Of a DNA stretch of 64,000 nucleotides, positions 27,970 to 64,000 are shown piece after piece. The stretch lies in IMG/VR virus record IMGVR_UViG_3300008117_006295, positions 13,132-77,131 of that record; one strand, written 5' to 3'. A model generated the notes under the pieces. The model searched no databases. It had not been told where the DNA came from and saw nothing but the letters and a program-made list of their open reading frames with translations. Source of the DNA: a virus. Positions within the stretch are counted from its first letter, which is position 1. Each line of letters starts with the position of its first letter. The translations under genes were made by a program, and so were the position numbers.

Positions 27970-27970
27970 G

Positions 27971-34145: not shown

Positions 34146-34148
34146 TTT

Positions 34149-34745
34149 ATGTTTAATTTTACTAATGCTAATTTACTATTAAATAGACCAAATCATACGA
34201 TAGATGCTAGTATAATTTCAAAAGAACAGATAAGATATATTTTAGCAGTGCTAGATAGTGTATTAAGTCAAAATATTCAAGGAGACGTTGTTGAATTTGG
34301 ATGTTATGTTGGCGAGTCATCAAAATATTTAAGAATGATGCTAGATCATCATTTATCTACAAAAAAATTATATGTTTATGATTCTTTTGATGGATTACCT
34401 CCATTAAGTAAATATGAAGAAAATACTGGGTGGCAACCAGGAACATTAAAAACATCAGAGTCCGTATTAGTAGAAAATTTTTATAACAATGGATTAAAAC
34501 CACCAATAATTACTAAGAATTGTTTTGGATTTTTGGATGGTGATTTTTATGATAGTATTTATGATAGTTTATCTAAAGCCTATCCTCTATTATCTGTTGG
34601 AGGATGCTTAATGTTTCATGATTATGAAAGAAATGATCTTCCAGGAGTAAAAGCAGCTATAATAGATTATATGAAAAATTATAATGATAATTCATATACT
34701 TTAATTAAAATTTATGAACAACTGGGATTATTAATTATTCTATAA
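34149..34745 (+). CDS. TylF/MycF-family O-methyltransferase
   Basis: GDVVEFGCYVG, YDSFDGLP, LDGDFYDS, GGCLMFHDY, PGVKAA. Confidence 0.88.
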   Translation: MFNFTNANLLLNRPNHTIDASIISKEQIRYILAVLDSVLSQNIQGDVVEFGCYVGESSKYLRMMLDHHLSTKKLYVYDSFDGLPPLSKYEENTGWQPGTLKTSESVLVENFYNNGLKPPIITKNCFGFLDGDFYDSIYDSLSKAYPLLSVGGCLMFHDYERNDLPGVKAAIIDYMKNYNDNSYTLIKIYEQLGLLIIL

Positions 34746-38784: not shown

Positions 38785-38800
38785 TATAGTCTTTCTTTTA

Positions 38801-41800: not shown

Positions 41801-44440
41801 AGTATCAGTTCCTGGACCATGAATTTGCATCTCAATAAAATCTGGACTGTTTTTTACGCCAGAGAGAGTAGATAAAAAAGATTCTTTAAATTTAACACAT
41901 CCGCTTCTTTCTGGAACCACCATTGTATAATTATCTAAAAGATATTTTTGGCGTATACCAGAAATATTGGTAATATGATTAATAGGTATAGGTATTCCGC
42001 TATATGTAGTTGCTCCAGAAAAACCAGGATTTGAATATGCAAAATCTAATGCATATAATGGTTTATCAAATTCTATATAATCAATATCTGAAGCATTTAA
42101 ATTAATATCTGCTATTTTCCATTGTTTAAATCTTGATTTGTCTATAATACTAGTTGCGCTAGGAGTTATTGTTGAAGTAGGAGTTTGACTTAATGTTGGA
42201 GTTGCAGTAATAGATGATGTGGGAGTTTGTGTTTTTGTAACTGTAATTGTTGGAGTATTTGTGCTAGTACGGCTATTTGTTGGAGTTTGAGTGTTAGTTG
42301 GAGTTGGTGTTGCGGGGGTTGGGCTTAATGTTGGTGTTTTGGTATGCGTAGGCGTAGTAGATTGTGTTAATGTACAAGTGGGAGTAAATGTTGATGTTGG
42401 TGTTGGAGTATTCGCTATACTGGCAGGAGAAGACGAAGGTTCTGGAGTAGTAGTAGGTGTAGGAGTTGCTGTATTATAGTTATTTGGAAGATATCTTGTT
42501 ACATTGGGGGCAGGAGATTTGCTAGGAGTAGGCGAAGCTGTATTTGTTGTTGTAGGAGTTAAGGTTGGAGAAGCAGTTAGGCTCGCCGTTGCCGTTGGCG
42601 TAAAAGACTGTGTTGTTGTTGGTGTTGGAGTCTTAGTTTTAGTTACAGTAATTGTTGGTGTAAACGATGGAGTTGCTGTTGACGATGGAGTTAAACTTTT
42701 AGTTGGAGTACATGTTGGTGTAATAGTAGGGGTTTGCGTACGAGTAGGAGTAATACTTGGTGTTGTAAATGGAGGAATAGACGATGTCACACTTGGAGTT
42801 GGTGTAACGAACATAGGTATACCATGTACTAATAAATCGTCATCAGCTGCTTGTAAAAGTAGTTGTAATTTAGAAGACGCTGTTCCTGCATGAGTATATC
42901 CTGTTCCAGATTCTGCTATTTTTATACTTGAAACCTTACCTCTAATTTCACATACCGCATATGCTCCACTACCAGGACCAGGTTCTACAATAAAAGTTTC
43001 ACCATTTATTTCTACTGTTTCTAATGGTTCTGGAGAAATTATTATATTAGGTGGTTTTTTCCATAATACAGGATTATTCTCCATATAAATCTCTAAAACA
43101 CCAGAAGATTCAGGATTTAATACGGCAATAGGTATTGGTATTTCTTCAAAATTAATTATTTCTCCACCAGCCGGTTGTAGTGCGACTACTGGAGCAGAAA
43201 TATATCCTGTTCCAGGGAGTATAACTCTTATCCAATCAATTGATCCACTCCATGCAACGTCAAATTCTGCATCAACACCTTCTTCATCATGATAGTATTT
43301 TGTATTGTTTTCTCTAATAAAATTATGATTATAATGATAAAATCCATCAGAATCTTTAGAAGTATTATTTACATTAAAAAGACTTGGTTTATAATATTTT
43401 AGATAAATATTCGGTTCTCTACTAAATTCCAAAATATCTAGAAATGTTGGCGGTCTACCATTTTTTTTAAAAAAAGTATCATATGTGTCAAACCATGTAT
43501 AAGTATTACCCGGTATATTTTCCCATGGTTCTTCTTTTGGATTTGGTAGATCAACTAAAGAAAATGATTTTATACTAGTATTTAATCTTGCCCTAACCGC
43601 TTCTGTGTCAGGATTATATCTATAGTTTTCTGGATAAGAATAAAATCCAGAATCTGCCAAACAGTCCATTTGTAAATGTATTTTATTTGGAACACAATAT
43701 AGATCATATGTATGAGAATCTATAAATTTAGTACCACTTGGTCTTGGTGTGCCATCTGTAGTTCCGTCATTAACTATAAGAATATTACTATCTGGTATAT
43801 CTAAAATTTTAAATCCTAATCCATTAAAAATTATATCATCTCCAATTCTAGGAATATATTCTACTTCTTCTAATGATTCATATATAATTTCGTTATATAT
43901 TTTATATTCACCATTTCTATTGTAATAACTACCAGTTATTCCACTAGGTGGTATAGTTCCAATTCTTACAATTATTGGCGATCTATTACTAGATAAACAT
44001 GCACCATATCTATTTTCTATTATTGGAAAAGTATTTTGGTTATTAATTGCAATTGCACCATTATATAAATCAACACCAAAAGTATTATTCATAGTCCATA
44101 TTGAGCCATCACTTTTCATCAATAATTCTATATTATTATCTCCTGTTGGTGCAATAATTACTTTTAACCAATCAGTATTTCTATCTATTTGACAATAATT
44201 ATTATATATTGGTAAATTTAAATTAAAATTACCCGCACCAACTTTTCCATTTATAGACCACAGAGTACCGCTCGTGCTAATTGCAAAATAATTACCAATA
44301 CTTTGCCATTCTTGAATTTCACACTTTACTGGATTTAATGATCCATCTAAATGATAATATCTTGGACTATAAGTAGGATCACATCCTTGTGATAGATTAG
44401 TATAATTATTGTTATTACAACAATATTGCCAAAAACTCAT
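38801..44440 (-). CDS. Giant tail/baseplate protein with RCC1-like N-terminal segment and Thr/Pro mucin-like tract
   Basis: TAATG coupling sets the start at 44440 (MSFWQYCC); STSGTLWS and KSDGSIWT resemble RCC1 repeats; T/P tract at about 42149-42805. Confidence 0.75.
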   Translation of the reverse strand: MSFWQYCCNNNNYTNLSQGCDPTYSPRYYHLDGSLNPVKCEIQEWQSIGNYFAISTSGTLWSINGKVGAGNFNLNLPIYNNYCQIDRNTDWLKVIIAPTGDNNIELLMKSDGSIWTMNNTFGVDLYNGAIAINNQNTFPIIENRYGACLSSNRSPIIVRIGTIPPSGITGSYYNRNGEYKIYNEIIYESLEEVEYIPRIGDDIIFNGLGFKILDIPDSNILIVNDGTTDGTPRPSGTKFIDSHTYDLYCVPNKIHLQMDCLADSGFYSYPENYRYNPDTEAVRARLNTSIKSFSLVDLPNPKEEPWENIPGNTYTWFDTYDTFFKKNGRPPTFLDILEFSREPNIYLKYYKPSLFNVNNTSKDSDGFYHYNHNFIRENNTKYYHDEEGVDAEFDVAWSGSIDWIRVILPGTGYISAPVVALQPAGGEIINFEEIPIPIAVLNPESSGVLEIYMENNPVLWKKPPNIIISPEPLETVEINGETFIVEPGPGSGAYAVCEIRGKVSSIKIAESGTGYTHAGTASSKLQLLLQAADDDLLVHGIPMFVTPTPSVTSSIPPFTTPSITPTRTQTPTITPTCTPTKSLTPSSTATPSFTPTITVTKTKTPTPTTTQSFTPTATASLTASPTLTPTTTNTASPTPSKSPAPNVTRYLPNNYNTATPTPTTTPEPSSSPASIANTPTPTSTFTPTCTLTQSTTPTHTKTPTLSPTPATPTPTNTQTPTNSRTSTNTPTITVTKTQTPTSSITATPTLSQTPTSTITPSATSIIDKSRFKQWKIADINLNASDIDYIEFDKPLYALDFAYSNPGFSGATTYSGIPIPINHITNISGIRQKYLLDNYTMVVPERSGCVKFKESFLSTLSGVKNSPDFIEMQIHGPGTDTLSSDPLTNEEFSDKTIFTLDNICKSINYHQLYRSIENIYGSNFNIIVSQSFPENIYGITKFNNALPPPEENILSQIAGSEIYFRHAPLNIRDVITFGISWEIDPPPEDGETYYYYFRIGDFPSAGGGFMDFDCNAILGEYLTAWGVYDDYINAGRVKVYAEGQGYIERDGIVDEDSVVTLPRTLVGNNPLSFTVTKSISISSSGVSASKQVTYSSSRSLAGNCITGTKSVTTDNYTREGFTSNYSTDNDLSSYFSTVPYPIHGAKYISRLDNYEEGIYNPSLPFYDLTVKGDNESSTRYYRGSIINQTLVDAPWIEVSTVNTTGMFDDGESGAGNFKTEGASFINNDITLVGQTIKRGNITTKSYFENRPGPGGITESTTTTIDGNSSPPFPTAAEIEVSGYLNSIYYSKIDSDTMFKEDFTNYSYIFPMSKKEIAKIYFPGNGYGDGAIAELVPTDGPFGFIIVNSGNIISNNKYSIEPTGVILSQGFDYPIRVGCSENNIFVSGDIIFDNEESKIAADNGNIINYLGVDTNNHVYIIDQLTTYPLGKSYSITSDFVLTNSSPSSDYINYDTNTNYDRIINRYISPPDLPIKNTSHSLIIPVQSLSLLFADDNADPNNTIISGIDYNTSITYVNYTTSLGYTSDPNINDYIFGNSYVWPPPTGGIRSVIEEPLYTTYNEIALDLGIVSSAIEDSVPDKVFPGRIIKIDNKDKLFINNQGYMQDQIYLLEETKYNLAEITYTSPTGSFTAIINKSINIFPIDNINYALYYGNASINNIYTIKNIPTINLEDIQCVKQKIIPQIIYQDTTCCLQGEIIASGDLTLEITGHNPFPVLVTSGMNYTISIPTGADGAVGSRTASPCGNSLYLNSIGMINGHSYESYSMTSISGSDIDYSFELNTSAYTAPEEISFDSFKFNHYLNTDILMASGLSIKNSNFDSIIITNFGELNVLRGHLIGEPAYVYYITKLCNNHMTSFSSSFDNIIGNILIDNLGNAYKIG
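42149..42805 (-). repeat. Degenerate (T/S)-P-T repeat tract (coding)
   Basis: About 220 aa of TPTPSVTSS...TPTSTITPSATS sequence. Confidence 0.85.
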
Positions 44441-46590
44441 TATAAACACTCCGCTGAAATTAATTCATAAATATTTCCACCAAAATTAGATATATAACAT
44501 ACATTCTGCTCACCAGAAATAGTATCTGGTTGAATATCTTTTAACTTATTTATAACGCTAACTGTAGTATTAAATTGAACTAATGTAACTTCTTTGCTAG
44601 AATTTTTATCCCAAGAGCCACTATATAAGCCTTTCATCATTGATGATGATCCAGCTGAGTTTAAAGCTATATATTTATTTGTAAATGTATCATAATATGC
44701 ATAAACTAAAGAATCTTTAGGTATTAATCCTCCAATTTTATCAATAATTTCAATTTTTGCATTACCAGAAGTTTCTGTGGTTTGAGCAGTTTGACCATTT
44801 TTATCATAAATATCATCAGAATATTGAGTTATACTTTCACTATGTTCTGTAACTATAAATCCGGATGATGAAGAGAATGGTACTAATGTATTTTCTATTT
44901 TTGCGACAACTACTTTATATGGCTGAGGACTTACCCAAACACCTCTATCGTTATCAAATCTTAAGTCTACAGGACCAACAGGCCATGTTGATGGAGAAGA
45001 TAACCAATTGTGTGGAAATCTATCAGTATTGTCTCCTTCATTTGGAATAGGTTTTCCATTTGTATCATATCCCCAAGATTGTAATACTAATGGGCCTCTC
45101 AACCCCAAAAATCTATAATCGTCTGAATATCTATTAGGATCTTCTTTTCCATAAAAATTAGTAATAAGACCACTTTCTGGAACAGTTTCTTCTCTTCCGA
45201 CCAAGTCTAATGAATGACCATCTCCCGATCCAGAATGATGATGTTCTCCGCTACCAAAAGGATTTGTTAATGGATTAAGATAAAATTGAGTTATATCTAG
45301 ATTATATAACATTTCTCCACTTACTGAACATGGTGGATTAGGATGATTTGAAGAACTCAATAAATCTTTTTTAGTAAATTTGGTAAAAGAAGGTAATCCT
45401 CCGTCTCCATTTAATGAAATAGGTGTGAAAAAAGCATCAAGACCCATGTATGCTTTATTGCCATAATTTTCCATCATTTCTACTGCTGTTTTGGCTAAAG
45501 TACTAGTTCCAACAATAACTCTTTCAACATTTGCAGTAGCATTTAAATCATACCCACCAACTAATATTCTTTGCAATGAAGCTTTTGCAGAATTAGGTTT
45601 ATTTTCTTCTCCTGATACTCGTCTATTACTATTATTAAATTTTTTGATTTGACGATTAATTTTACCTTGAGTAATTTGATTATTTCTTAAAAATCTTAGT
45701 TGTTCTGTTCTATATTTTGCAATCATCTTAAATCGCTCAATATACTGTCTTGTTAGTCCTCCAAATTTTGGAGTAAATGTTCTAAAGTCATATGATGTTG
45801 TTATTCCATTTGAACCAAAAGAAACTGATACGCCAGTTAAATTTGGACCGGTTGCACCAAATATCTGACCAAAACCATATTGCGGCAAACCAGGAACTGT
45901 TACTCCTCCGGTTTCACCATATAACAAGCCAATATTGGCGGATTGGGCTATAGCATTTCCTGCTTCTATCATGTATGCAGTTGATCCAAAAACCCATGGA
46001 GCTAAATCTTGATTAACTTCAACTCCTATACCACCAGAACTTGTATGGAAATTAGTAGATGCAAATGGACCATATGTCCTGATATTACTTTTCATTGGTA
46101 TAACAGCTGCTGCTGGTAAAACAGCTGCTGGTTGACCACCTTTATCATTAATTGATGCGGCATCCACAGACGATGAAGCGTTTGACATTATATTATCAGC
46201 AGAACATACACTTTGGGCTTTAACTGAAGATGTATCTTGTAGGCTTGATGTAGACGATTGACTAGGAGGAGATGATCCAGACGATTCCCCATCTCCACCA
46301 TTTGCTACGAATGCAGTAGCATTAAGAGCTTGAGCTGTCATTAGTAAGGTTGGATTAAAAACATTTTGGTTAGCAGGACATAATGAAGCAAAACACCCAT
46401 CGCTAAATTTTATAACAACACCCGGTATTAAACTACTACTGGTAGTATTACTATCTGCTAAAAAATAGATTTTTTCCTCAACATCAGCTTTTAACCATGC
46501 TCTACCATTGCTACTAACATCATCAGCCAATATTTCTGACTCAGAAATTTTACTAAAATCTAACTTAGCACTACAGGATGTTCCAGCCAT
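44440..46590 (-). CDS. Tail-associated structural protein
   Basis: 716-aa ORF in the tail operon; AGGAGA RBS. Confidence 0.7.
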   Translation of the reverse strand: MAGTSCSAKLDFSKISESEILADDVSSNGRAWLKADVEEKIYFLADSNTTSSSLIPGVVIKFSDGCFASLCPANQNVFNPTLLMTAQALNATAFVANGGDGESSGSSPPSQSSTSSLQDTSSVKAQSVCSADNIMSNASSSVDAASINDKGGQPAAVLPAAAVIPMKSNIRTYGPFASTNFHTSSGGIGVEVNQDLAPWVFGSTAYMIEAGNAIAQSANIGLLYGETGGVTVPGLPQYGFGQIFGATGPNLTGVSVSFGSNGITTSYDFRTFTPKFGGLTRQYIERFKMIAKYRTEQLRFLRNNQITQGKINRQIKKFNNSNRRVSGEENKPNSAKASLQRILVGGYDLNATANVERVIVGTSTLAKTAVEMMENYGNKAYMGLDAFFTPISLNGDGGLPSFTKFTKKDLLSSSNHPNPPCSVSGEMLYNLDITQFYLNPLTNPFGSGEHHHSGSGDGHSLDLVGREETVPESGLITNFYGKEDPNRYSDDYRFLGLRGPLVLQSWGYDTNGKPIPNEGDNTDRFPHNWLSSPSTWPVGPVDLRFDNDRGVWVSPQPYKVVVAKIENTLVPFSSSSGFIVTEHSESITQYSDDIYDKNGQTAQTTETSGNAKIEIIDKIGGLIPKDSLVYAYYDTFTNKYIALNSAGSSSMMKGLYSGSWDKNSSKEVTLVQFNTTVSVINKLKDIQPDTISGEQNVCYISNFGGNIYELISAECL

Positions 46591-51919: not shown

Positions 51920-54900
51920 TTACTCTTCTGCTTGTGGAGAGGTCTTTTTACTAGCGGGTTTTCCTTTTGATCCTGAAGAATATCCTACATTTCCGCCTGT
52001 TTGATTATATAATTTATCCATAGCAGCATCTATTTGCTCAGTGATCAATCTTTGCATATTTCCTTCTATAGCTTGGAAAGCTGCTGCTCCACTAACTCTA
52101 ACGTCTACAACATGTTGACCTCCTCGTATTTCTATAGTAGATGGAATATTTACTGTTGATAAAACAGCAACATATTGACCAAATAATTCGATAGTTTTAC
52201 CAAAATTATCTAATGCAACTAATGTTCCATTATCTATTATTCCTTTAGAAGAATTTTGTGGATCATTATTAGTATTAGTTTTTTTGCTTCCCGGTTGTGT
52301 TGGAGACGGTGTTCCTAGCGGAGTTAATGCCATAGGCGGTGTTATTAGACTATTAGTATTTGTATACTCTCCTAGTCTTTGATCAGTTGAACCATAGCTA
52401 TTTGCGGTATTAATTCCTACAGATTCTGCGCCATAATTAGCTCCAGCAGATGGTAAAGACACAGGAACAGTTGGTCTAGGAGCAGGAACGGGAAGACTTT
52501 GTGAAGGCTGGACAGAATTTGGATATATGCTACTCTGTTGTACTCCGCCATAGGTAGGGGTTGTGGTATTTGGTATTACTGAGGTATTTCCTGTTAATTC
52601 TTTGGCGCTTTCATCAATTTCTCTATTTGTTTGAGCTTCAACCAATGCATTATTTTCTTGTGTCTGTAATGATGGGTCTTGTGGATAATTTTCAGCTGGT
52701 AATACATTTCCATTTTCGATAGTGGTTTCAGGCTTAGAGAATCCACTTGCTACTATATTAGCAATAATTGTAGCTAAATTAGTCACAGATTGTGTTAATA
52801 GTATAAAAGCATTATTGAGGTCATTAATTATTGTTAATTCAGAATTTTCAGCATCAATATTTTGTGATTCAACCGGATTCTCAGTTGACGCAACCATTTG
52901 AGCTTCAATAGCAGCATTTTCAGCTTGAGAAGTAGCATCTTGTTGTTCTGGTAAGACTTCTTTAGGTTTTTGATTAGCATATTCTTCTTTTCTTCTAGCC
53001 TGATTCTCTTCTGCCCTAGCTCTAGCTTCTTTGACAGCATCATTAAACGCTTTATCTTTTCTTGCTTCTTCTTCTGCAATACCTTGCCATCCTGGGGTTC
53101 CAGTTGTTACAGGTACCTTATCTGATCTTTCTATACTTTGAACTTGTTCTTCTCTATTTTTTATAAAAGCATCAATATCTCCACCAGTACTAAATCCAAG
53201 TTCTCTATCTAGATCTTCTGAAGTACCTCCTTCGCTTTTGATTCTTTTTGCTGTTTCTAACTGTAATTGTTTATCAGCAAGTTCTTTTGCATTTTTTCTA
53301 TCTATTGAATTTAATCCTTCATAATTAGTTCCAATATTTTCTTTTTTAGCTTCTTCTGTTAATCTAGATTCAGTAGCTGCATTTTGCTGTGCTGATTGTG
53401 CTGCTTGATTGCTAGCTTCCCATAGTTTACCTACTTCGACACCAATACCAATAATAGAATTTCCAATATTTAGTAAATTATTACCAACTTGAGCTAAATA
53501 AGATTGAGTCTGATTTTCGCTTAACATTGATTCTACCTCAGACATCTTACCTTCCCAATTATTATATAGTTCGAAGAAAGCCTTTAGAGTATCCGCAGCA
53601 GCGTATGCTCCATATACAGCAGCAGCTGCTGTGGCTGCTCCTGCGGCTGTTACACCGGCAGCAACGGTTCCGCCAGCAGCAGTTCCGCCAGCAGCAGCAG
53701 CGCCACCAGCAGCAGCAGCGCCACCAGCAGCAGCAGCGCCACCAGCAGCAGCGCCACCAGCAACAGCAGTTCCAGCAGCACCGATACCGAGTCCTCTTCC
53801 AACAATACTTAATAAACTATCAGTAAGAGCGGATACTCCTCTATCTAATAATTCATTGCCAACAGCAGCGCCAAGAGATGTTAATCCTGCTATAATAGTT
53901 GCCCACATAGCGTCACTAGCATTTTTAGCCTCAGCAACCTTGGCTTCTTGTGCTAAAACTTCTTGAGACTTATCTTCTACAACACCTGTCATCTGAGCTT
54001 CAGACGGTTTACTCTGCTCAACACCATCTTGGTTTTCTTTATCTCCAAACATTGACTGTCTAAAATTTTCTCTTTCTTTATCTACTTTTTGTTCAGCCTG
54101 CCTATATTCTTGAGAGCCCCTATATTCTTCTATTTCTGACCTTAATTCTTCGGGAGTTTTTCCAGTTTTGATTGCTGTATTATCAAAAGTTTCTTTTGCT
54201 CTTTCTTCTTTAGCCTTGGCATCTTTATATGCTTTACTTTTCTTAAAATCTTGATATTCTGGACTAGCTCTAAATTCATCAACATTTTTGAATACTCTGG
54301 TAGTAGCCGAACTTACGGTATTTTTAGCAGCATTTTCTTCTAATTTTAAAGTTTCTGCTTTGGCTTTTTCTTCATTAGAATAAGCAATATCAGCTGACTG
54401 AAATTGCGCCTCAGTCATGCCTAATTTTTCTGCTTCTTGTTTATCTAAAGCTTGTTTCTCTCTAACTGCCGCATCTAAATCACTAAATGCTGTTTTTTGT
54501 GGTTCGGCTTGTGGCGGTAAGCCAACATTATTTTGTTTTGGTAGATTAGAAAAACCAGCTAATATAGCATTTTCTAAAATTCCTGGTAAGTCCCTGGCTA
54601 AACTACTTAAGATTTCAGCCGAACCTCCCTCGCCGCTTTCGTATGCTTTTGCAGCAGCAACAGCAGCTTTGGATAACATTTCAGCAGCCTTGGCTTGTTT
54701 ATCTGTCGCTTCTTTATACATTTGTAACATAGCATCCTGAACAGGATCAACCCCTGTTTCTGCCAAATTTAATGCTTGTCCAAATGTCATTTTTTCCATT
54801 TTATTAGTTTTTGGATTACGATACAATGCCCCGGTTTGAGTATTTAGTAATTGTTTGCCTCCTGGCGTCGATTCTAACATACGTCTTGTTACTTGAGCCT

Positions 54901-57900
54901 GCATTTGATTCTTTAGAGATTCTGGCATCATACTGCTAATATCATTTAATCCAGCAAAAGCATTTTTACGGAATTCTAAACTATTCATTTCTTGAGGAGT
55001 AGCTTTTCCACTAATTACTTTGGTATATGCGGATAGTCCTTTATTTATTTTTTGTAATTCATCAGCATCACTAGTGAGTATTTTTTCCATAAAATTAACA
55101 GAGCCTTTAGCGGCCTGTTGTTGCTCTTGTAATCCTTTTAGCGCAGCAGCAGCGGCCGTCCCATCATTTGCTAATTCTTCAAGAGCTTTACGACTATTAT
55201 TAATAGCATTATTTTGATCAGCAACAACCTTTAACTGTTCCTGAACAGCAGCTGCTAGTTCTTGTCTTCTTTCTGGAGATTCTCCATCAGCAGCCTTAAG
55301 AGCATCTTGGCGTTTAGCTAGCTCTTTCTCTGCGGCAGATCTTTCCTCTATAGCACTTTGCATTCCATTAAAGATAGTTTCTGGGTCTGTAGATCCGCCT
55401 GCTACGACACCACTAGATAATCCTCTTATTCTAGCGTCTCCTGCGGCTGTTTTTTCTGCTATTGTTAAATTTCTACCTAAAGCTTCAGCTAATGCAATTT
55501 CTGCATTTAATCTAATGTCAGATGCTTTTAATGTCCAGTCCATTGATTCTTGCATAGCTTTAGCGTAATCGTTCATCAAATCTATGCTAACATCTAAAGC
55601 ATCATTATATTGTTTTTGAAATTCTTGACCTATTTTTAAAGCGGCTGCTGATTTTTTCTCTAATTCTGCAACAATATTGGTCTCTGACTTAAATTTTTCA
55701 AAAGAAACACCTTCTTTTCCTTGTGTTTCAGCAGTTAATGATCCTTTTAATTCTTCTCTAACAGAATCACTAAGGGTAGCACCAGCTAATCTAAAGGCTT
55801 CATCAAGTTGCTCCATAGCAGAATCAACATTTAATGATCCTGTTTGAGCTAAAATATTAGGTAATTGATCATTAATAATTTTAGCTGCTATTATTTGATT
55901 TTTTAGATCTTCTCCACCAACACCGCCTCCAGCAAGAGCAGCAGTTTGAGAAGCAACTTCTTTAACTTGATCTAAAGAATAGGCCTGAATATTTCCTAAT
56001 ACTTCTTCATTAGTTCTATCTACTTTACCAATTGTTGCTTGGCCAGAATATGCTGCTGCTGTAGCCGTAGCTTTTGTTTTCATTTTATCAATATTTTGAG
56101 CGAAAGCTTTTAGCATTGCTGATGCTCTATCATAAGTTCTAATTAAACTTTCTGTTTCTAAAGCAACTTTTTGATAAGCTCTTGATAAAAGTATTTGTCT
56201 ACGCTCATTTTCAGCTTCTACTGCTAATAATTGTTTAGCTGCTGCTATTGCTTCTTGTTGATTTTTTGACTTTTCTTCATCTGTACTTCCTAATTGACCA
56301 CTAATAGCTAGTCTTCTTCTTTCTCTTTGATCATCCGTAGAAGCATTTTCAAGATAAATTCTTCTAAAAATATCTTGTTCGCTCTTACCACTTTCTCTCA
56401 TCGTGGCAAAAGTTTGTGATTTTTTATATAATTGATTGGCTTTATCCTCACTTACTCTTTGAATTTCTTGATCTCTTGCTGTTACAGTAGTAGTATCTCC
56501 TCTATTTTTAGCTGCTTGTCTTTCAAGATCTAATTGATTTAATCTTGTGTTATACTGATTAGCAATATCAATATCTGATTGTATTTCTGATTCTTTTACT
56601 CTATTTAGTCTTTGTGAACCTAATTGTCTATACCTTCCAGTATTGATCGCCTCTTCTGCTAGATATGCTTTTCTGGCTTCTGCCTCTTGAGGCATGCCCA
56701 TAGCATTAGACACCATATCAGAATATGGCGCTAGTGCTCTCATCCATGATTTATTAGCTTCTGGTAAATCTATCATGCTGCGAGATCTAAGATCTTGCAT
56801 ACCAGATTCTTGTTGAGACAATATTCTTTGAGCAGAAGCTATGTTGGCGTCCGAAGCATTCTGTTCTAGTTTTTTAAATGCTTCTGCTGTTTTACCAGAT
56901 GCTTCTGATAGATTATCTAATTGTTTACGTAAAGAAGATTCATTAATAGACTTATAGTATTCACTAATTGCTGTTGACACTGCTGCAAAAGCTATAACGC
57001 CAGCTTGAATACTAGTAGAAAAATTTCTTAAAGTATTAGATATTCCGGATAAACGATTATTAAAGAATCCATCTAAAGTATCAGCAAAATTATTAATATT
57101 TTTACGAATATCTAGTTCACCAGCAACACCAGCTCCTTTACCAAATCCTTCGAATCCGGCCATTAAAGCTGTGGTTTGATCACTAAGTTGAACACCATAT
57201 GTTTTTAATGTCTCTCTTAAAGTAGCAGAAACTGTTGCTAATGTAATCAATGCTCTAGTAGTTGCTTTTAATGGACCTCCAAGATTATCTACAAATCTTT
57301 GAAAACTACTATCTAGATTATCACTAAGTCTTTGAGCTAAATCTTGTGAAGCTAAATCAGGATTTATTCCTCTTTCTTCAGCAACTCTTTTTAAAGCTTC
57401 TGTTTGAGCTTCTGATTCTGTTAAAGTTCTATTTAATATATCTCCTAATCCATTAACAGCTGCTATAGTATCTTCTACTCTATCTCCAGATCCCGCTCTT
57501 TCAAATCTGGACATTAATTGTTTAGCCATTAAATCAAAATCTAAAGTTTTATCAACACTAACCGATTTAAGTTTATTAGCTAAATCATTAACATAATTTT
57601 TTCTATCATCTGATGTTTTTAGTTTTTTAGCACCTACGGCGGCTTCTGTTAATTGTGCTCTTAATTGTGTTTGAGAATTTCTTAACTCTCGTGGAATACT
57701 TCTAGCAATATCCTGTGCAGCATATACTATTGATCTTCTAAATTCTTCTAATGCTTGTCCTGCTTTTTCGGCGTTAAATGCCATATATTCATCAACATCG
57801 CCACCGGTAGCAAATCTCTGAACTCCTCCAACAATACCACCCTTGTTATATCCTTGTAATTTATCAGCTTTATTTAATTTATGTAATTTACTATATCCTA

Positions 57901-60900
57901 TTTTTTGTGCAGCATTTTTATTAATTACAAATTCACCAGGAGTTAATAGTGCTGGAACAGTATCTTTTGACGATATTCCTGCTCTTCCTCCTGTGGCAAA
58001 TGTCTCAATATTAGTGGGTTTAAGTGGTGATGATCCAACATATTTTAATGCTAGTCCCAATGGATGTTTAAATAAACTACTTTCAAATTGTTGTACTAAA
58101 TCAGGATCTCCAGATTGTATTCTGGACATAAGTTGTCCAAGTAAAGCTCCTTCTCTAACATCACCCTCACTTCCGGCATAAATAGATTTTCTAGCTCCTC
58201 CTTGTACCTCAAACTCTGTTCCATCCTCAGATTTCAAAGTTTGAGATCCTTCTTGAACTCTTATGCCAACAGACATCATTCCAGCACTTGGATTTTTATC
58301 GAATTTACCCTTTAGACCAGTTTGATTTTCTGTAGCAGCATATTTGTCCTTAAGAACTTCATAATTATCATGTATCCATTGTACAACTAATCCTTTTTGT
58401 AATTCATAATCAAGATCAAAAGTTTTGGGATCTAATACTTCATCAAAACTTAAAACCATCGGCTTGCCTGATCGGTCACCACTAGCAAGCGTGAATCCGC
58501 TACCTCCATTAACTCTCATCTTAGCTTGTTGTTCAGCTTTACTTTTTTCTGTATATAGATAAAATCCTGCTCCTTGACCATATCCTGTGGCTATATTACT
58601 TAATGCTCCTTTTTCTTTGAAGCTCTTTAAAACATTATCATCGATTCCAGTATTACTTCCATGATATAGTTTGACAGCTCCTCCTTCAGCAAAAGCTGCT
58701 ATTTTTTCTGGATCAGGAATACCATATTGCTGTCTAAAATATCTTTGGAATTCTTCAACAGCTTTACCTCTACTACCAGAATCTATTGTTCTTTTTACTT
58801 CTGTAGGAATATCAGGATCGATACCGAATATTTTTGCGGCTTTTGCTCCTATTCCACTTGGAAAATCTATTGGTCTTGTTCTTTGAGCATCGTCTAAGAT
58901 TTTAGCATCTGCTGATCCAAAAATTTGTTCTAGTAAAGCACCCTCAATATTCCCTTGTCCAAGAGTTTCTCTTTCTTTTTGACTTAATTTCTTTGGTGAG
59001 ATTCCAAGAAGTTTTGCTGCTCCTCCTACTAATTTTTCTGTTTCTCCACTAAGATAATCAATAACACTCTTATATTGAGTTGGTAATCCTCTCTGAATTA
59101 TAGAAGCATTAATTGATCTTTCTTGACCAGATTGATCTGTACCAAGATTCCATATTTCTGGTCCTAATAATCCTGTATATCCTAGTGGATTAAGTCCAAC
59201 TAAACCTAGTTGTTGTGATGATAATACCGCATTAGCTGTTTCTTCTAAGGTTTTTGTTCTTTTATTGCCTTGTGATTCATTAAATTTATCTATTAAATAA
59301 TCTCTTGTTGCAGTATAATAAGCTAATTTATCTGGTTTAGTTTCTGGTCTAAATGCAGAATTCCAATATTTTAGCTTACCTCCTTCGGCAGTATCTCTTA
59401 CTGTTTTTCCTGCAAATGGACCAAAACTAGCATCTGTTGGTAATCTTTCGGTTCCAAATCGTTTTAAAATTTCTCTTCCTTCTGCTGGTAATATGCCAGA
59501 AGATTTTTTAACAGCTGTTTCTTTAGCAACTTTTTGCAATATTGCCTGTTGTAAGCCCGATTGAGCTTCTTGTGGAACTGATGTGCCAAATGCTCCTTGA
59601 ACAGCAGATTGAACTTGTTGTGCCATAATTTCTGAAGAAATATCAGAAGAAGCAGCAGAAACTTGTGCTCTTCTATTAGGGTCAACAGAATACATATCCG
59701 GATAACGTGATGATAATTCTGATATAATATTATACGCTCTGTAACTTAGTGCTCCTTCAGATAGTCTTGCTTTTTGTTTTCTTAAACTTTCAACTTGTTC
59801 TGCTATATCTGGATAATTTTCTTTTAGTTTTTTACTTAATACTTTGTATGGTCCACCAGGAGCATTAGCTAAAATTTCTTGTATTTGACTATCATATTTA
59901 GCTTCTTCAATATCAACAACTTTATTTATACTATCTAATAGCATAGGAACCATAGTACTACGATTTTGTAACTGTGGCCTATTACCCATAAGTATAGAAG
60001 CAATTTCTGGATGTAAATATTTAGATAATGTAGCATCATCACCAGCGAATAATGCTTCTCTTACTTTAGTAGCACTAATATCTTCTATACGTGGTATATC
60101 AGTAACTTTCATTCCTGCTCTGGTATATTTTCCTAGCGTTCTTTCATCTTTACCAGATGTTATTGCCATAGCGCCACTAGTTCTAGCAAATTTTCTTTTG
60201 TCCCCACTTCCTAGAACTTCAACATATTTTGGTATTTCTCCTGTTGGACTATCTCCTTGAGCTAACATGGCTCCAGGAAAATTAATACGAGCCATAAGTT
60301 GTCTAAGATCAGCATCAAAAATTCCATATCTAGCAGCATGTTCTGGTCCTTCACTGCTTTTCATTGGTAAATTACCAGCAGCATTTACTAAAATATCTTT
60401 CATAGAAGCATTGGGATTTTGTTCTATCATGCTAGCAAGTAGTGTTTCAACAGCACCAGCATGACCTCTTGTTGCAGGAGCAAAGCCGCCTGTATAGTAT
60501 CCACCAGCTTGTACTATATCTGATAGTTCACTTTGTTTTTTACGTCTTAGCTGATAACTTCCGGCTTTTCTTCCTAAAACTGTTGCTTTTTTACCTAATT
60601 CTTCTCTTAATGTAACTTCTTCTACTCCAAAATCTCTACTTGCACCTCTGGTACTACCGGGTTTACGTCCATACAATCCGGCGCCCGTTAAATCTCTAAC
60701 TTCTCGACCTTTCTGGACCATCTCTTGTTCTTCTTTGGTGTTAGAACTTAAAATATATGCTCTATCTACGTCTTTTAAATATGCATCTAATTTAGATTGA
60801 CTGGCTGTTGCAGTAAGGGCTATTACTTGATCGGCTTTCTTAATATCTTCTGGAGTAAGAATTGGAAATCTTGTTGTTTGTCTGAGTGTAGCATCGTCAT

Positions 60901-63900
60901 TAGCCCCAGCGCCCATTGCTAAACTACTTTTACCACTACCCGCTGCTCCTGCAATAGCAATAAATTTGCTTAATTCTTCTTTTTTACGCGCTTTTGCTGC
61001 TAACTCTCCAAGTTTAATACTATAATCACTAGTATCAGTAATACCTAGTGCTTCCATAGCTTTTTTAACTTTTTCAGTATTAGTAGGATCTCGTAATATA
61101 TCGGTATCTATGACACCAATATTTCTAGTAACTTTACCACCACGAGCATAAGTTTGTCGTTGAATACCAGCATTTCCTAATAGCTCATTTAGAGTTGAGT
61201 CTAAAATTCCTTGCATATTAGAATCTAATTTAGGAGCATTCTGAATAAGAGTAGTTAAAAATTCTTCTTTACCATAATCTTCTACTTTATCTATTGTTTC
61301 TTGTTTTTGTCCACCTTTTAATAATATCTCGTTAATTTTTGGATTAATTGGACGATATTCACGGGCATTTTTCTTAGCTCCAGACTCTACCCACATAGAG
61401 TATCCTTCTTTAGCTAGCTCTGGATCAGGACTTCTTCCTCCCGAACTAATAGTTCCTCGTCTTAGATCTTGTAAAACATTATCAAGTAAACCATTCTTAT
61501 AAGAGCGTCCATAAACAACATCCGCACTATTATAACTTCCGCCAAGAGCATCAAAAGCATCTGCTAAATCATCATTGTCTCCACCGAATAATTGAGATAC
61601 TCTTTCTTTATATTTAGTAAAACTATCTTCTGATTTGGCTCGTAAAGAATTAAATAATTGGTGTGTTAATTCATGATATAAAACATTTTTTGGTTGATTG
61701 CGCTCAAAAGCATTACTAGCCATTGAAACAAACCCGCGTCCTGTTGACGCTAGTACGCCCTTTTTTTGTTCCATAAGACCTTTACGAGCAACTGCTCTTT
61801 TATCCATTACATCAGATATTTTTTTACCAAGAGCGCTCTTTTCGTCCATAGCTTTATTAAAAGCCAAACTATCATAACTAAATGATCCATCCTCAAATGT
61901 TTCTATAGGAGTTTTTAATATTTTTTTGATTTCTTTAGTTTTTTCATCTAGTAATTTTTGATATCCAAATAAATCTTGCTCATCAGCTTGTGTGAATCCA
62001 AAGGCTTCCAATCCCTTATTATCATATCCTTGGGTACTAAAAGGATCTCTACTAAAAGTTCCACGATTACCAGAACGTTGTAATTCTCCACCAAAATCTA
62101 TCGTCTGAGGTAAAACTTTACTTAAATCGTCTCCTGGTAATCCTATAAACTTAGCAAAATCAGATAGATTACCCAATAATTCATTACGGCTAATTTTGGT
62201 ATTAAATAAACTTAAAAATCTTTTTCTATCAAATGGTTCGCTCTGAAATTTTTGAGATACTGCTTCTGGATCAATAGTTATTCTTTCATTACTTGGATAA
62301 GGATTAAAAGTATTATTTACTTTTTCATCATTTAACTTTTTTTCTATTTCTTTAACATAGGCGTTTGTTATACGTTTAGGAAATTTAGTTTCTCCTGTGC
62401 CGAATGGAGTTGACTCTGCTTTTCCACCAATAGCAAATTCAACAACTCCCTTTTCATTCCATTTTCTTCCGGTAGTTAGATCAGAATCCATTGAAAATCC
62501 TTGAGCCAAATAACGACCGAATCCTCCGCCTGCTTTTATTTTTTTTGTATCTTGAAAACTTTTAACTTCATCTTGTAGTTTATTTTTAGCTTCTTCTCCA
62601 GCTTTAGAGGCGGTAAGATTTTCTGTTACATAATAATTTGAAGGAATTTTGAATCCACTACCAGATTCTATTGGCGGTTTTTTATTTTTATTTTTAGATA
62701 AATCCATAAGTTTAACAGCTTTAGCCTCTGATACTCTGCTATCTTTATTGCCAGTTTCATATGTATCAAAATCTGAAATTCTAAATCTAGCAGTAAAAGG
62801 ATCGTCTGTTGGAGTAACCTGTGCTTCAAAAGTGTCTCCGTCAATAGCCTTTTGCTTACCGTCTATACTAGCTATTTTTGCCGCTCCTCCTTTAGCAAAT
62901 TTTTGTCTTTTGTTCGATCTTCCAGCTCTGATACTACCTCCTCCACCATACTTATTCATACTATGAAGATTATCTGCTCCGATAGTATCAACAGCTTTCT
63001 TTCTTATCACAAACTCTCCTGGCATAAGCATTGCTGGAACAGTATCTCTATTACCGCTGCCAGGAACCACGCCACCGCGAGCAAAGGCTTTAACTTTTCC
63101 TCCAGAAGCAAAAGTAGGCCCTCCAGAAGCTGCTATTCTTGAAGATAGATTATTTACTGCTGTTGTTAAATTATTTAATGCTGTAGTATTTAATTTTGTG
63201 GCTTCTGCAGCTCTTGATACTGCTTCGTTTCTTTCTCTATCTTTTGTTCCCGTGATAGTTGAAGCAACATTGGCTCCTGTTTCTCTCGCGCTACCTCTTC
63301 CCATAGTTCCAGCAAAACCACTAGCAAATTGTGTGGCTGCTTGAAAGCCTTTGATAGCTCCCATTATAGCTAACATTGGCAATAATGGTTTAAAAGCTCC
63401 GGCTAAATTAATTAATCCACTTGTTAAAGTTAAAACTATTGTTGCTAAACTTTGAAAAGCAGTATTTTTACCAATATCTCTAATTAATGCTAAAAACTGT
63501 TCTCTAACTTTTGCAATCTGATTTGCTAAAGAAAGTTGAGCTATTGCAGCATCTTGAGCTAAACTTCCTTGTCCTCTTTGAGCAACAGCGAGTGCCTTCT
63601 GTGCTTCGCTAAATTGTTGAATAAGAGGAATAACTTTACCAATTTGTCTAAATCCACCAAGTTCTTCTACGATTTTGGAGAATCTTATGTCTCTTGGATC
63701 TAGTTGATTTAACGCTTGACTTAAACGTCTGACTGCTTCATAAGGACCAACGAATTTTCCTTCAAGATCTGTTAATATAACTCCGAATTCTTTTAATTGA
63801 TTAATAGTACTAGCTCTTTGAAGACGTGTAAAAATAGTTCTTAAACCTGTAGCAATAGTTTCAGCACTTTCACGAGTAGTAGCACGTACGCTAGTAAATA

Positions 63901-64000
63901 CTGCAATAAATTCATTTAATGCATCTTTACCTTCGCTAACACCCTTACTAGCAGTAGCAAAAACACCACCGGTTCTTTGAATAGCAGCAATAATGTCAGC
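51920..64000 (-). CDS. Tail tape measure protein (>4,026 aa, 5' end outside window) with internal multi-enzyme cargo cassette
   Basis: The frame is open from 64000 (ADIIAAIQRTGG...TTRESAETIATGLRTIFTRLQR...LGGFRQIGKVIPLIQ, a TP901-type TMP core), in frame with the listed 63382 start. It has long Ala/Glu/Lys helical regions and enzyme motifs at 57800-63112. Confidence 0.9.
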   Translation of the reverse strand, partial: ADIIAAIQRTGGVFATASKGVSEGKDALNEFIAVFTSVRATTRESAETIATGLRTIFTRLQRASTINQLKEFGVILTDLEGKFVGPYEAVRRLSQALNQLDPRDIRFSKIVEELGGFRQIGKVIPLIQQFSEAQKALAVAQRGQGSLAQDAAIAQLSLANQIAKVREQFLALIRDIGKNTAFQSLATIVLTLTSGLINLAGAFKPLLPMLAIMGAIKGFQAATQFASGFAGTMGRGSARETGANVASTITGTKDRERNEAVSRAAEATKLNTTALNNLTTAVNNLSSRIAASGGPTFASGGKVKAFARGGVVPGSGNRDTVPAMLMPGEFVIRKKAVDTIGADNLHSMNKYGGGGSIRAGRSNKRQKFAKGGAAKIASIDGKQKAIDGDTFEAQVTPTDDPFTARFRISDFDTYETGNKDSRVSEAKAVKLMDLSKNKNKKPPIESGSGFKIPSNYYVTENLTASKAGEEAKNKLQDEVKSFQDTKKIKAGGGFGRYLAQGFSMDSDLTTGRKWNEKGVVEFAIGGKAESTPFGTGETKFPKRITNAYVKEIEKKLNDEKVNNTFNPYPSNERITIDPEAVSQKFQSEPFDRKRFLSLFNTKISRNELLGNLSDFAKFIGLPGDDLSKVLPQTIDFGGELQRSGNRGTFSRDPFSTQGYDNKGLEAFGFTQADEQDLFGYQKLLDEKTKEIKKILKTPIETFEDGSFSYDSLAFNKAMDEKSALGKKISDVMDKRAVARKGLMEQKKGVLASTGRGFVSMASNAFERNQPKNVLYHELTHQLFNSLRAKSEDSFTKYKERVSQLFGGDNDDLADAFDALGGSYNSADVVYGRSYKNGLLDNVLQDLRRGTISSGGRSPDPELAKEGYSMWVESGAKKNAREYRPINPKINEILLKGGQKQETIDKVEDYGKEEFLTTLIQNAPKLDSNMQGILDSTLNELLGNAGIQRQTYARGGKVTRNIGVIDTDILRDPTNTEKVKKAMEALGITDTSDYSIKLGELAAKARKKEELSKFIAIAGAAGSGKSSLAMGAGANDDATLRQTTRFPILTPEDIKKADQVIALTATASQSKLDAYLKDVDRAYILSSNTKEEQEMVQKGREVRDLTGAGLYGRKPGSTRGASRDFGVEEVTLREELGKKATVLGRKAGSYQLRRKKQSELSDIVQAGGYYTGGFAPATRGHAGAVETLLASMIEQNPNASMKDILVNAAGNLPMKSSEGPEHAARYGIFDADLRQLMARINFPGAMLAQGDSPTGEIPKYVEVLGSGDKRKFARTSGAMAITSGKDERTLGKYTRAGMKVTDIPRIEDISATKVREALFAGDDATLSKYLHPEIASILMGNRPQLQNRSTMVPMLLDSINKVVDIEEAKYDSQIQEILANAPGGPYKVLSKKLKENYPDIAEQVESLRKQKARLSEGALSYRAYNIISELSSRYPDMYSVDPNRRAQVSAASSDISSEIMAQQVQSAVQGAFGTSVPQEAQSGLQQAILQKVAKETAVKKSSGILPAEGREILKRFGTERLPTDASFGPFAGKTVRDTAEGGKLKYWNSAFRPETKPDKLAYYTATRDYLIDKFNESQGNKRTKTLEETANAVLSSQQLGLVGLNPLGYTGLLGPEIWNLGTDQSGQERSINASIIQRGLPTQYKSVIDYLSGETEKLVGGAAKLLGISPKKLSQKERETLGQGNIEGALLEQIFGSADAKILDDAQRTRPIDFPSGIGAKAAKIFGIDPDIPTEVKRTIDSGSRGKAVEEFQRYFRQQYGIPDPEKIAAFAEGGAVKLYHGSNTGIDDNVLKSFKEKGALSNIATGYGQGAGFYLYTEKSKAEQQAKMRVNGGSGFTLASGDRSGKPMVLSFDEVLDPKTFDLDYELQKGLVVQWIHDNYEVLKDKYAATENQTGLKGKFDKNPSAGMMSVGIRVQEGSQTLKSEDGTEFEVQGGARKSIYAGSEGDVREGALLGQLMSRIQSGDPDLVQQFESSLFKHPLGLALKYVGSSPLKPTNIETFATGGRAGISSKDTVPALLTPGEFVINKNAAQKIGYSKLHKLNKADKLQGYNKGGIVGGVQRFATGGDVDEYMAFNAEKAGQALEEFRRSIVYAAQDIARSIPRELRNSQTQLRAQLTEAAVGAKKLKTSDDRKNYVNDLANKLKSVSVDKTLDFDLMAKQLMSRFERAGSGDRVEDTIAAVNGLGDILNRTLTESEAQTEALKRVAEERGINPDLASQDLAQRLSDNLDSSFQRFVDNLGGPLKATTRALITLATVSATLRETLKTYGVQLSDQTTALMAGFEGFGKGAGVAGELDIRKNINNFADTLDGFFNNRLSGISNTLRNFSTSIQAGVIAFAAVSTAISEYYKSINESSLRKQLDNLSEASGKTAEAFKKLEQNASDANIASAQRILSQQESGMQDLRSRSMIDLPEANKSWMRALAPYSDMVSNAMGMPQEAEARKAYLAEEAINTGRYRQLGSQRLNRVKESEIQSDIDIANQYNTRLNQLDLERQAAKNRGDTTTVTARDQEIQRVSEDKANQLYKKSQTFATMRESGKSEQDIFRRIYLENASTDDQRERRRLAISGQLGSTDEEKSKNQQEAIAAAKQLLAVEAENERRQILLSRAYQKVALETESLIRTYDRASAMLKAFAQNIDKMKTKATATAAAYSGQATIGKVDRTNEEVLGNIQAYSLDQVKEVASQTAALAGGGVGGEDLKNQIIAAKIINDQLPNILAQTGSLNVDSAMEQLDEAFRLAGATLSDSVREELKGSLTAETQGKEGVSFEKFKSETNIVAELEKKSAAALKIGQEFQKQYNDALDVSIDLMNDYAKAMQESMDWTLKASDIRLNAEIALAEALGRNLTIAEKTAAGDARIRGLSSGVVAGGSTDPETIFNGMQSAIEERSAAEKELAKRQDALKAADGESPERRQELAAAVQEQLKVVADQNNAINNSRKALEELANDGTAAAAALKGLQEQQQAAKGSVNFMEKILTSDADELQKINKGLSAYTKVISGKATPQEMNSLEFRKNAFAGLNDISSMMPESLKNQMQAQVTRRMLESTPGGKQLLNTQTGALYRNPKTNKMEKMTFGQALNLAETGVDPVQDAMLQMYKEATDKQAKAAEMLSKAAVAAAKAYESGEGGSAEILSSLARDLPGILENAILAGFSNLPKQNNVGLPPQAEPQKTAFSDLDAAVREKQALDKQEAEKLGMTEAQFQSADIAYSNEEKAKAETLKLEENAAKNTVSSATTRVFKNVDEFRASPEYQDFKKSKAYKDAKAKEERAKETFDNTAIKTGKTPEELRSEIEEYRGSQEYRQAEQKVDKERENFRQSMFGDKENQDGVEQSKPSEAQMTGVVEDKSQEVLAQEAKVAEAKNASDAMWATIIAGLTSLGAAVGNELLDRGVSALTDSLLSIVGRGLGIGAAGTAVAGGAAAGGAAAAGGAAAAGGAAAAGGTAAGGTVAAGVTAAGAATAAAAVYGAYAAADTLKAFFELYNNWEGKMSEVESMLSENQTQSYLAQVGNNLLNIGNSIIGIGVEVGKLWEASNQAAQSAQQNAATESRLTEEAKKENIGTNYEGLNSIDRKNAKELADKQLQLETAKRIKSEGGTSEDLDRELGFSTGGDIDAFIKNREEQVQSIERSDKVPVTTGTPGWQGIAEEEARKDKAFNDAVKEARARAEENQARRKEEYANQKPKEVLPEQQDATSQAENAAIEAQMVASTENPVESQNIDAENSELTIINDLNNAFILLTQSVTNLATIIANIVASGFSKPETTIENGNVLPAENYPQDPSLQTQENNALVEAQTNREIDESAKELTGNTSVIPNTTTPTYGGVQQSSIYPNSVQPSQSLPVPAPRPTVPVSLPSAGANYGAESVGINTANSYGSTDQRLGEYTNTNSLITPPMALTPLGTPSPTQPGSKKTNTNNDPQNSSKGIIDNGTLVALDNFGKTIELFGQYVAVLSTVNIPSTIEIRGGQHVVDVRVSGAAAFQAIEGNMQRLITEQIDAAMDKLYNQTGGNVGYSSGSKGKPASKKTSPQAEE
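53688..53756 (-). repeat. 18-bp tandem repeat encoding (GGAAAA)n in the TMP
   Basis: CCAGCAGCAGCAGCGCCA x3 plus one 15-bp variant on the + strand. Confidence 0.9.
57800..63112 (-). other. [F/Y]AxGG-delimited enzymatic cargo array inside the TMP
   Basis: In-frame motifs FASGG 63098-63112, FARGG 63071-63085, FAKGG 62885-62899, FAIGG 62423-62437, YARGG 61136-61150, FAEGG 58679-58693, FATGG 57986-58000, YNKGG 57836-57850 and FATGG 57800-57814; DTVPA..PGEFVI modules at 63005-63046 and 57923-57964. Confidence 0.85.

Follow-up and report, generated by a model that had tools for sequence, protein, structure and literature searches.

Zeta-family kinases have UDP-N-acetylglucosamine (UNAG), UDP-N-acetylmuramic acid (UNAM) and UDP-glucose as substrates, and ng_zeta1 is a topologically rewired member of this family in which two sequence blocks are exchanged, with the catalytic Asp56 ahead of the P-loop Lys115 (PMC5923241). 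In the phage system NARP3, a PnuC-like importer of nicotinamide riboside (NR) is combined with the NadR-like enzyme Bas30_86, whose function is abolished by mutation of K10 in its GKF motif (PMC13464706). A cytoplasmic enzyme can also be fused to a tail tape measure protein (TMP), as in the virion RNA polymerase of Thermus phage P23-45, gp96 (10.1101/2022.12.01.518664, PMC10770324), and Iyer et al. 2017 list zeta-like kinases, ADP-ribosyltransferases (ARTs), zincins and nucleases among the modules of polyvalent proteins (PMC5512222). Term searches of that article found neither a HIGH-type nucleotidyltransferase nor tape measure proteins, and no description of a kinase-nucleotidyltransferase TMP cassette was found in the literature searched. 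Here we describe such a cassette, a 490-residue unit with a predicted P-loop kinase domain and a predicted HIGH-motif nucleotidyltransferase domain, within a giant TMP encoded on a viral stretch of 64,000 nucleotides (positions 13,132 to 77,131 of IMG/VR record IMGVR_UViG_3300008117_006295; the window hereafter).

A two-domain unit within a giant tape measure protein

Three motifs of the window, namely a Walker A motif, a (T/H)xGH motif and an ISxTxxR motif, share one open frame on the minus strand and lie inside an open reading frame (ORF) of more than 4026 residues. Their positions are those that a first-pass annotation of the sequence had given (Table 1), and the segment around the Walker A motif reads FIAIAGAAGSGKSS (aa 1013-1026, window 60923-64). 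The motifs are not a chance occurrence, as they lie within a confidently folded evolutionary unit of 490 residues and their residues are invariant in relatives. An AlphaFold2 model of this unit, built from a 23-row alignment, shows two domains (pLDDT 86.4, pTM 0.79). The fusion of a P-loop kinase to a HIGH-family nucleotidyltransferase, which the annotation had proposed, is thus supported by both folds and by the conservation of the active-site residues. The span proposed at that stage (59990-61135) covers the motifs but omits the first residues of the unit with its [FY]AxGG linker as well as the C-terminal helical part. Overall, the identification of the two domains and of the cassette is held with high confidence.

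The unit is not a separate gene but a segment of the TMP gene, and it is basic (pI 8.4-10.1). Because the N-terminal ~290 residues of the ORF match a PHROG tape measure family (aa 28-291, phrog_4211, E 2.3e-12), the ORF that carries the three motifs is identified from its sequence as a giant phage tail TMP. A database protein of 4288 aa (P0002) is 100% identical to the ORF, and the TMP core family PF10145 is precomputed on this protein and on most relatives. Translation of the frame at 51920-64000 (-) yields 4026 stop-free residues and the frame is still open at the window end, which is also the end of the 77-kb IMG/VR record, rated 56% complete; as the window ends at the contig end, the TMP gene is cut at its 5' end. 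The position of the unit in a virion protein makes the virion delivery envisaged in the annotation plausible at infection.

Kinase domain

Modelled alone, the kinase domain reached a pLDDT of 89.5. Its best VIA match among 48,161 PDB representatives was ng_zeta1 (6epg_B, Z 8.3, rmsd 3.8, 153 aa), and further matches were UMP and adenylate kinases (6.1), AvrRxo1 (5.8) and a polynucleotide kinase (PNK; 4gp6, 5.7). A second VIA search again placed ng_zeta1 chains at the top (6eph_B with Z 8.4, 6epg_B and 6epi_F with Z 8.3), followed by adenylate kinases (6.3), and Foldseek concurred on the ng_zeta1 match with a probability of 0.98. All three ng_zeta1 entries align residues 9..211 of the model with residues 48..232 of the chain. 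Among the matches listed, the alignments of AvrRxo1 begin at residues 22-27 and those of the other kinases at the Walker A strand (around residue 57-62), and only ng_zeta1 covers the N-terminal strand-helix block of the domain. This block contains an invariant hIDxD motif (D15 and D17 in unit numbering), with 57 residues from D17 to the likewise invariant K74, which follows it. The offset of the alignment to ng_zeta1, 39 at the start and 41 at the lysine, would place D17 on Asp56. Judged from the model, the kinase domain is of the zeta-toxin type with an ng_zeta1-like rewired layout, in which an Asp motif stands ahead of the Walker A lysine.

Two other leads on this domain were set aside. A search of PDB sequences with the kinase profile returned Walker A matches only (UvrA and others), which were dismissed as motif-only, and a reading of the N-terminal DxD as a HAD-phosphatase motif was rejected, since the stretch between it and the Walker A motif is only ~55 residues long and is part of the kinase fold.

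Nucleotidyltransferase domain

The C-terminal domain of the model (unit residues 213-396) had its best VIA match in the phosphopantetheine adenylyltransferase PPAT (3x1k, Z 13.3, rmsd 2.4, 142 aa), closely followed by NadM (2qjo, Z 13.0), an archaeal NMNAT (1f9a, Z 12.6) and NadD (5das, Z 12.5), and 169 PDB chains matched it at Z >= 8. With these four values tied (Z 12.5-13.3), the substrate cannot be told from the fold. The first-pass annotation had held that it cannot be read from the sequence. Both signature motifs of the superfamily are present, the (T/H)xGH motif after strand 1 within GGFAPATRGH and the C-terminal motif for the NTP phosphates, R354-x3-I-S-x-T-x-x-R. A beta-hairpin is inserted in place of the helix after strand 3.

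Sequence families were matched below their thresholds. The Pfam models PF16581 and PF01467 gave below-cut-off matches in 21 and 9 of the 23 aligned members, respectively; the best PF01467 score in relatives was 19.3 bits against a cut-off of 21 and spanned model positions 2-132 of 133. No NCBIfam family was reached at cut-off and only weak generic matches were seen; the CoaD equivalog TIGR01510 matched 2 of the 23 members weakly (best E 0.013). When the family profile was compared with PDB sequences, its ISxT region aligned with MJ0951/UPF0348 (3gmi, E 6e-6) and its HIGH motif with that of the phage NadR Bas30_86 (9x6f, E 1.4e-3), both of which read FAPxTRGH. Single-sequence searches of PDB and Pfam gave sub-threshold matches only. 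Comparison of the family profile with E. coli NadD and CitC in hhalign gave motif-length matches at 10-27% probability, which were not discriminating and were dropped, and the ESM Atlas returned only viral cytidyltransferase-like and citrate-lyase-ligase-like clusters without functional content. The domain is accordingly placed, on its modelled fold, as a divergent orphan member of the HIGH-motif superfamily in the PPAT/NMNAT class.

Spread, conservation and exchange of the cassette

A phmmer search of 1.84 billion representative proteins found 90 relatives of the unit, nearly all inside proteins of 2,000-7,000 aa (TMPs), and a word-based search found 68, most of them with PF10145. A tblastn search of the segment against 50,697 phage records gave no match, and no locus was confirmed by a single-sequence search of IMG/VR; an alignment-based search of the latter gave 29 loci, from which a clean 23-row alignment (A2) was obtained. 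Four related genomes are complete (197-244 kb), three of them with direct terminal repeats.

Conservation was counted over 136 representatives aligned to the family hidden Markov model. In the kinase domain D15 and D17 (125/125 each), K74 (131/131) and R162 (128/128) are invariant. Around the TxGH motif G221 and P225 (126/127 each), T227 (122/127) and H230 (126/126) are conserved, and the same holds for R354 and R364 (127/127 each) as well as S359 and T361 (126/127 each) in the ISxTxxR region. Since variation at these key positions is almost nil, the two active sites look intact, and both domains are apparently catalytically active in almost all members. A degenerate Walker A motif (GAAANRKS, with the lysine kept) occurs in one lineage only (L021/P0079; L021:2001-3554), in which the TxGH and ISxT motifs are intact and the kinase may be inactive.

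Of the 115 relatives with a length of 2,500 aa or more, 107 showed both domains, separated by a median of 7 aa, and the few apparent single-domain cases that were inspected by eye contain both. The annotation had remarked that the domain order is the reverse of that in NadR, and this is a constant property of the family, the kinase preceding the transferase in all 107. A putative stand-alone form (P0137, 334 aa) was discarded, as it is a fragment that starts within the kinase domain.

A sliding comparison with the near-identical TMP of L014 showed flanks on both sides that are 86-98% identical, whereas between aa 950 and ~1480 identity falls to 24-66%. On the left this drop is sharp and begins exactly at the YARGG linker. 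From this pattern the unit is seen to be a cassette that is exchanged whole between related phages. The two deeply diverged alleles (24-66% identical) both retain the catalytic residues.

A second region of the same TMP departs from the overall identity to L014. An SNase-like module (aa 368-521, window 62438-62899 (-)) is 48-56% identical over aa 400-499, against 86-98% elsewhere in the TMP, which suggests another swapped cassette.

Neighbouring modules and genomic context

Along the TMP, [FY]AxGG motifs recur at aa 297, 306, 368, 522, 951, 1770, 2001 and 2063. None lies between aa 951 and 1770 in the window TMP, and the unit shares this linker-bounded piece with a conserved spacer and a PD-(D/E)xK-like module (Table 1). 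The latter follows the pattern E..D..(E/D)xK, with D48 and K72 invariant in 15 relatives. Homologues of it are found in 91 of the 115 large cassette-bearing TMPs (79%), a co-occurrence counted only in TMPs that had been chosen for having the unit; it lies upstream of the unit in some and downstream in others, and in many relatives a linker motif stands between the two. The piece that follows is an ART-like module, whose identity as an ADP-ribosyltransferase is weakly based on faint Pfam matches and for which no PDB sequence match was found. An ART-like homologue accompanies 28 of 107 units (26%) and is more than 700 aa from the unit in 15 of the 28. The suggestion that the unit feeds a neighbouring ART domain is therefore not borne out by conservation, as the pairing is infrequent and the two modules are often distant.

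Table 1 Features of the TMP and its enzyme unit (TMP residues from the translated ORF; window positions on the 64,000-nt stretch; residue labels such as K74 and model helices in unit numbering)
Feature	TMP residues (aa)	Window position (nt)	Strand	Basis
Tape measure protein (TMP) gene		51920..64000	(-)	ORF list and translation; 5'-truncated at contig end
Enzyme unit (490 aa)	951-1440	59681-61150	(-)	BLAST against giant relatives; starts at YARGG linker
YARGG linker opening the cassette	951-955	61136..61150	(-)	Motif scan; unit of every relative starts with [FY]AxGG
Predicted zeta-toxin-like (ng_zeta1-type) P-loop kinase domain	951-1162	60515..61150	(-)	AlphaFold2 and structure searches
D-x-D of the hIDxD motif, candidate catalytic base, N-terminal to the P-loop	965-967	61100..61108	(-)	D15, D17 invariant
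Walker A motif GAAGSGKS	1018-1025	60926..60949	(-)	K74 131/131
Predicted HIGH-motif Rossmann nucleotidyltransferase domain	1163-1350	59951..60514	(-)	VIA fold matches, Pfam, profile against PDB
YTGGFAPATRGH with the GxFxPxTxGH (T/HxGH) motif		60461..60496	(-)	G221, P225, T227, H230 conserved
ISATKVRE, the ISxTxxR motif, with invariant R354 before it		60056..60079	(-)	R354, S359, T361, R364 conserved
C-terminal helical extension of the unit	1351-1440	59681..59950	(-)	Model helices 391-428, 447-468, 472-487; aligns in 23/23 members
Conserved spacer and PD-(D/E)xK-like module	1441-1769	58694..59680	(-)	Same linker-bounded piece as the unit
PD-(D/E)xK-like module	1661-1769	58694-59020	(-)	GNIEGA..E ... 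IDFP ... TEVKRT
ART-like module	1770-2000	58001-58693	(-)	Faint Pfam matches DUF3990 (E 0.087) and ART-PolyVal (E 0.25)

Several further observations concern the TMP and its genome. A repeat of the form 'DTVPAxLxPGEFVIxKxA...LHxxNK' follows FAxGG at 57815-58000 (-) (aa 2001-2062) and at 62900-63112 (-) (aa 297-367); in relatives this module reaches at least six copies, spaced ~1,100-1,400 aa apart along the TMP. In the C-terminal third, a 58-residue Gly/Ala-rich run (GGAAAGGAAAAGG...; aa 3405-3462, window 53615-53788 (-)) is bordered on both sides by hydrophobic segments and is possibly membrane-inserting or flexible. A gene for a DNA polymerase III alpha-like protein (18843-20717 (+)) has its best cultured-phage matches at ~33% identity in Bacillus and Rossellomorea phages, and the phage is without a close cultured relative. 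A cluster of glycosyltransferase-like genes (phrog_2170, phrog_842, phrog_2835; 23712-34745 (+)) lies beside giant structural genes (34735-44449 (-)).

Possible function of the cassette

As part of the TMP, the cassette would travel in the virion and act in the newly infected cell; by analogy with P23-45 gp96, we infer that the TMP carries it into the host. There, both domains could work on one nucleotide-linked small metabolite. The transferase would first join a nucleoside monophosphate, probably AMP, to a phosphorylated substrate, and the zeta-type kinase would next phosphorylate a hydroxyl of the nucleoside diphosphate (NDP)-linked product, or of an NDP-linked metabolite of the host. CoA synthase and PAPS synthase both carry out adenylyl transfer and then phosphorylate the product, and all characterised zeta-family kinases known to us act on NDP-linked metabolites. 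Because zeta-family substrates are NDP-linked and the two synthases adenylylate first, an action of the transferase before the kinase is favoured, although tentatively, as a possible rather than a probable mode of action. Such a scheme resembles CoA synthase (PPAT followed by dephospho-CoA kinase), PAPS synthase and the action of AvrRxo1 on NAD, and it differs from NadR, in which the kinase acts first. Perhaps, the injected pair of enzymes makes an unusual 3'- or 4'-phosphorylated NDP-linked metabolite, or, seconds after entry and before phage gene expression, rebuilds or inactivates a nucleotide relevant to immunity, although this extension is rather unlikely. Compounds resembling 3'-NADP, CoA or PAPS would be candidate products, as would a dead-end precursor of the cell wall, and, if true, the swapped divergent alleles of the cassette would reflect an arms race with host defences.

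Several points weigh against a transferase that acts ahead of a zeta-type kinase on a small metabolite. TMP copies per virion are few, which limits the turnover of a bulk metabolite, and the frequent PD-(D/E)xK-like neighbour and the basic character of the unit (pI 8.4-10.1) would also be compatible with a nucleic-acid substrate. Regarding the kinase, the Z of 8.3 to ng_zeta1 barely exceeds the range that the tool gives for a common arrangement, none of the 23 members matches the Pfam model Zeta_toxin (PF06414), and a PF06414 search of the genomes gave no match to the TMP. The equivalence of D17 to ng_zeta1 Asp56 is drawn from alignment ranges only, and positions ~20 and ~36, which by the approximate offset would correspond to the UNAM-binding Lys59 and Asn75, are variable in the family. 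Lastly, the lineage with the degenerate Walker A motif indicates that the two activities may be separable.

The proposal of the first-pass annotation was an NR/NMN-to-NAD+ salvage activity. In its NadR/NARP3-like form, the kinase would convert NR to nicotinamide mononucleotide (NMN) and the HIGH domain NMN to NAD+, countering NAD+-depleting defences at injection. NARP3 is an example of phage use of a kinase combined with an NMNAT (PMC13464706), NMNATs are among the tied top folds of the transferase domain, the family profile matches Bas30_86 at the HIGH motif, and an ART-like module lies downstream in the window TMP. Specific support for salvage was, however, not obtained. The domain order is reversed relative to NadR, and the K10 that is essential in Bas30_86 (G-K/R-F-x-P) is replaced by G, N or A in the cassette family (alignment to 9x6f). 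The kinase is zeta-like, neither VIA kinase search has a NadR or Nrk chain in its list of 50 matches, and Pfam AAA_28 matched none of the 23 members. PnuC (PF04973), the partner in NARP3, and Nampt (PF04095), the partner in NARP2, are absent from the contig (56% complete) and from the four complete related genomes; in two of the latter (G003, G004) the TMP domain itself is the sole CTP_transf_like match, and the other two gave none. The ART-like module is present with only 26% of units. In addition, NADase defences release ADP-ribose and nicotinamide, not NR, and for this reason a route in which the kinase acts first on NR cannot use their products. A few enzyme copies per virion would also face a millimolar NAD+ pool. 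Taken together, NAD+ salvage appears unlikely. A drain on cell-wall precursors has an equally small chance: here the kinase would phosphorylate UDP-GlcNAc or UDP-MurNAc and weaken the wall for entry or takeover, with the transferase having a separate or auxiliary role. The best structural match being the UNAM/UNAG 4'-kinase ng_zeta1 (PMC5923241) is in line with this idea, as is the wall-weakening role proposed for zeta-like kinases in injected polyvalent proteins (PMC5512222). Nevertheless, the positions that approximately correspond to the UNAM-contacting Lys59 and Asn75 are not conserved, a Zeta_toxin sequence match is absent, and the obligatory fusion to an intact HIGH transferase would be left unexplained.

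Alternatively, a PNK-like domain and a nucleotidyl-transferring domain could act together with the PD-(D/E)xK-like module on RNA or DNA ends, for example to repair or shield the nucleic acid of phage or host on entry. In 91 of 115 relatives the module lies next to the unit, either on its upstream or on its downstream side, the unit is basic, PNK chains are found among the weaker fold matches (4gp6 with Z 5.7, 4xrp with Z 4.8), and the nearest sequence family in the ISxT region is the TmcAL/UPF0348 group (3gmi, E 6e-6), TmcAL being an enzyme that acts on tRNA. These PNK matches nonetheless rank below the zeta and adenylate kinases, the co-occurrence was counted only within TMPs selected for the unit, and in many relatives the nuclease-like module and the unit stand on opposite sides of a linker motif. 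Sealing or capping of nucleic-acid ends is also not known to us for any HIGH-type transferase, and end processing is quite unlikely. An action in the producing cell, where the cassette would be merely expressed within the TMP and supply, for instance, an activated precursor for virion glycosylation or another late function, could be connected to the glycosyltransferase gene cluster beside the structural genes, and HIGH transferases do make activated precursors such as CDP-glycerol and ADP-heptose. Against this, the swapping of the cassette between near-identical TMPs better fits a host-facing conflict, and the polyprotein is shared with nuclease-, peptidase- and ART-like modules, which is typical of injected effectors (PMC5512222); a role in the producing cell is thus very unlikely. 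As TMP length sets tail length, inserted domains could in general be filler, and the unit an inactive relic or a purely structural spacer. This is extremely improbable given that the catalytic motifs of both domains are invariant in ~125-131 diverged relatives and that both alleles, at only 24-66% identity, keep them.

Comparison with known systems and significance

Virion-delivered enzymes act before phage gene expression, and known examples include RNA polymerases, ADP-ribosyltransferases and wall hydrolases. This repertoire would gain a chemistry of nucleotide metabolites if a conserved and swappable pair of kinase and nucleotidyltransferase is housed in the TMPs of an entire clade of environmental phages of 140-250 kb. 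Rewired zeta kinases of the ng_zeta1 type, which belong to plasmid toxin-antitoxin systems, would thereby also be extended to phage virions. With 490 aa, the cassette is also a compact and expressible assay target.

With ng_zeta1 (6EPG/6EPH/6EPI; PMC5923241) the predicted kinase shares the P-loop nucleotide-kinase fold and an Asp ahead of the P-loop lysine at a comparable spacing (57 aa in the cassette, 59 in ng_zeta1), and with the zeta, PezT and AvrRxo1 kinases it shares a looser likeness. The differences from ng_zeta1 are nonetheless considerable: identity is ~11-12%, the cassette has no Pfam Zeta_toxin match and no OB domain, the positions that approximately correspond to the UNAM-binding residues are not conserved, and the kinase forms part of a virion protein, where a nucleotidyltransferase is joined to it. 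The second domain resembles CoaD and the NMNAT, NadD and NadM enzymes in its five-stranded Rossmann fold and in its (T/H)xGH and ISxTxxR motifs (Z 12.5-13.3 over 142-165 residues), but identity to these enzymes is 13-21%, no cassette member reaches the curated cut-off of any of the families, the beta-hairpin insertion sets the cassette apart, and family-specific substrate motifs are not recognisable in it.

As a combination of domains, the closest counterpart is NadR/Bas30_86 (9X6F/9X6H; PMC13464706), in which a P-loop kinase and a HIGH transferase are likewise joined in one phage-encoded polypeptide. The cassette differs from it in the reversed order, the zeta-type kinase, the missing lysine of GKF and the lack of a detected PnuC partner, and while Bas30_86 is a separately expressed enzyme, the cassette is part of a virion protein. 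In this last respect it is comparable to P23-45 gp96 and to the polyvalent injected proteins (Iyer et al. 2017, PMC5512222), where a cytoplasm-acting enzyme is likewise housed in a giant tape measure or injected protein. Where P23-45 carries an RNA polymerase, the cassette carries predicted enzymes of a metabolic type instead.

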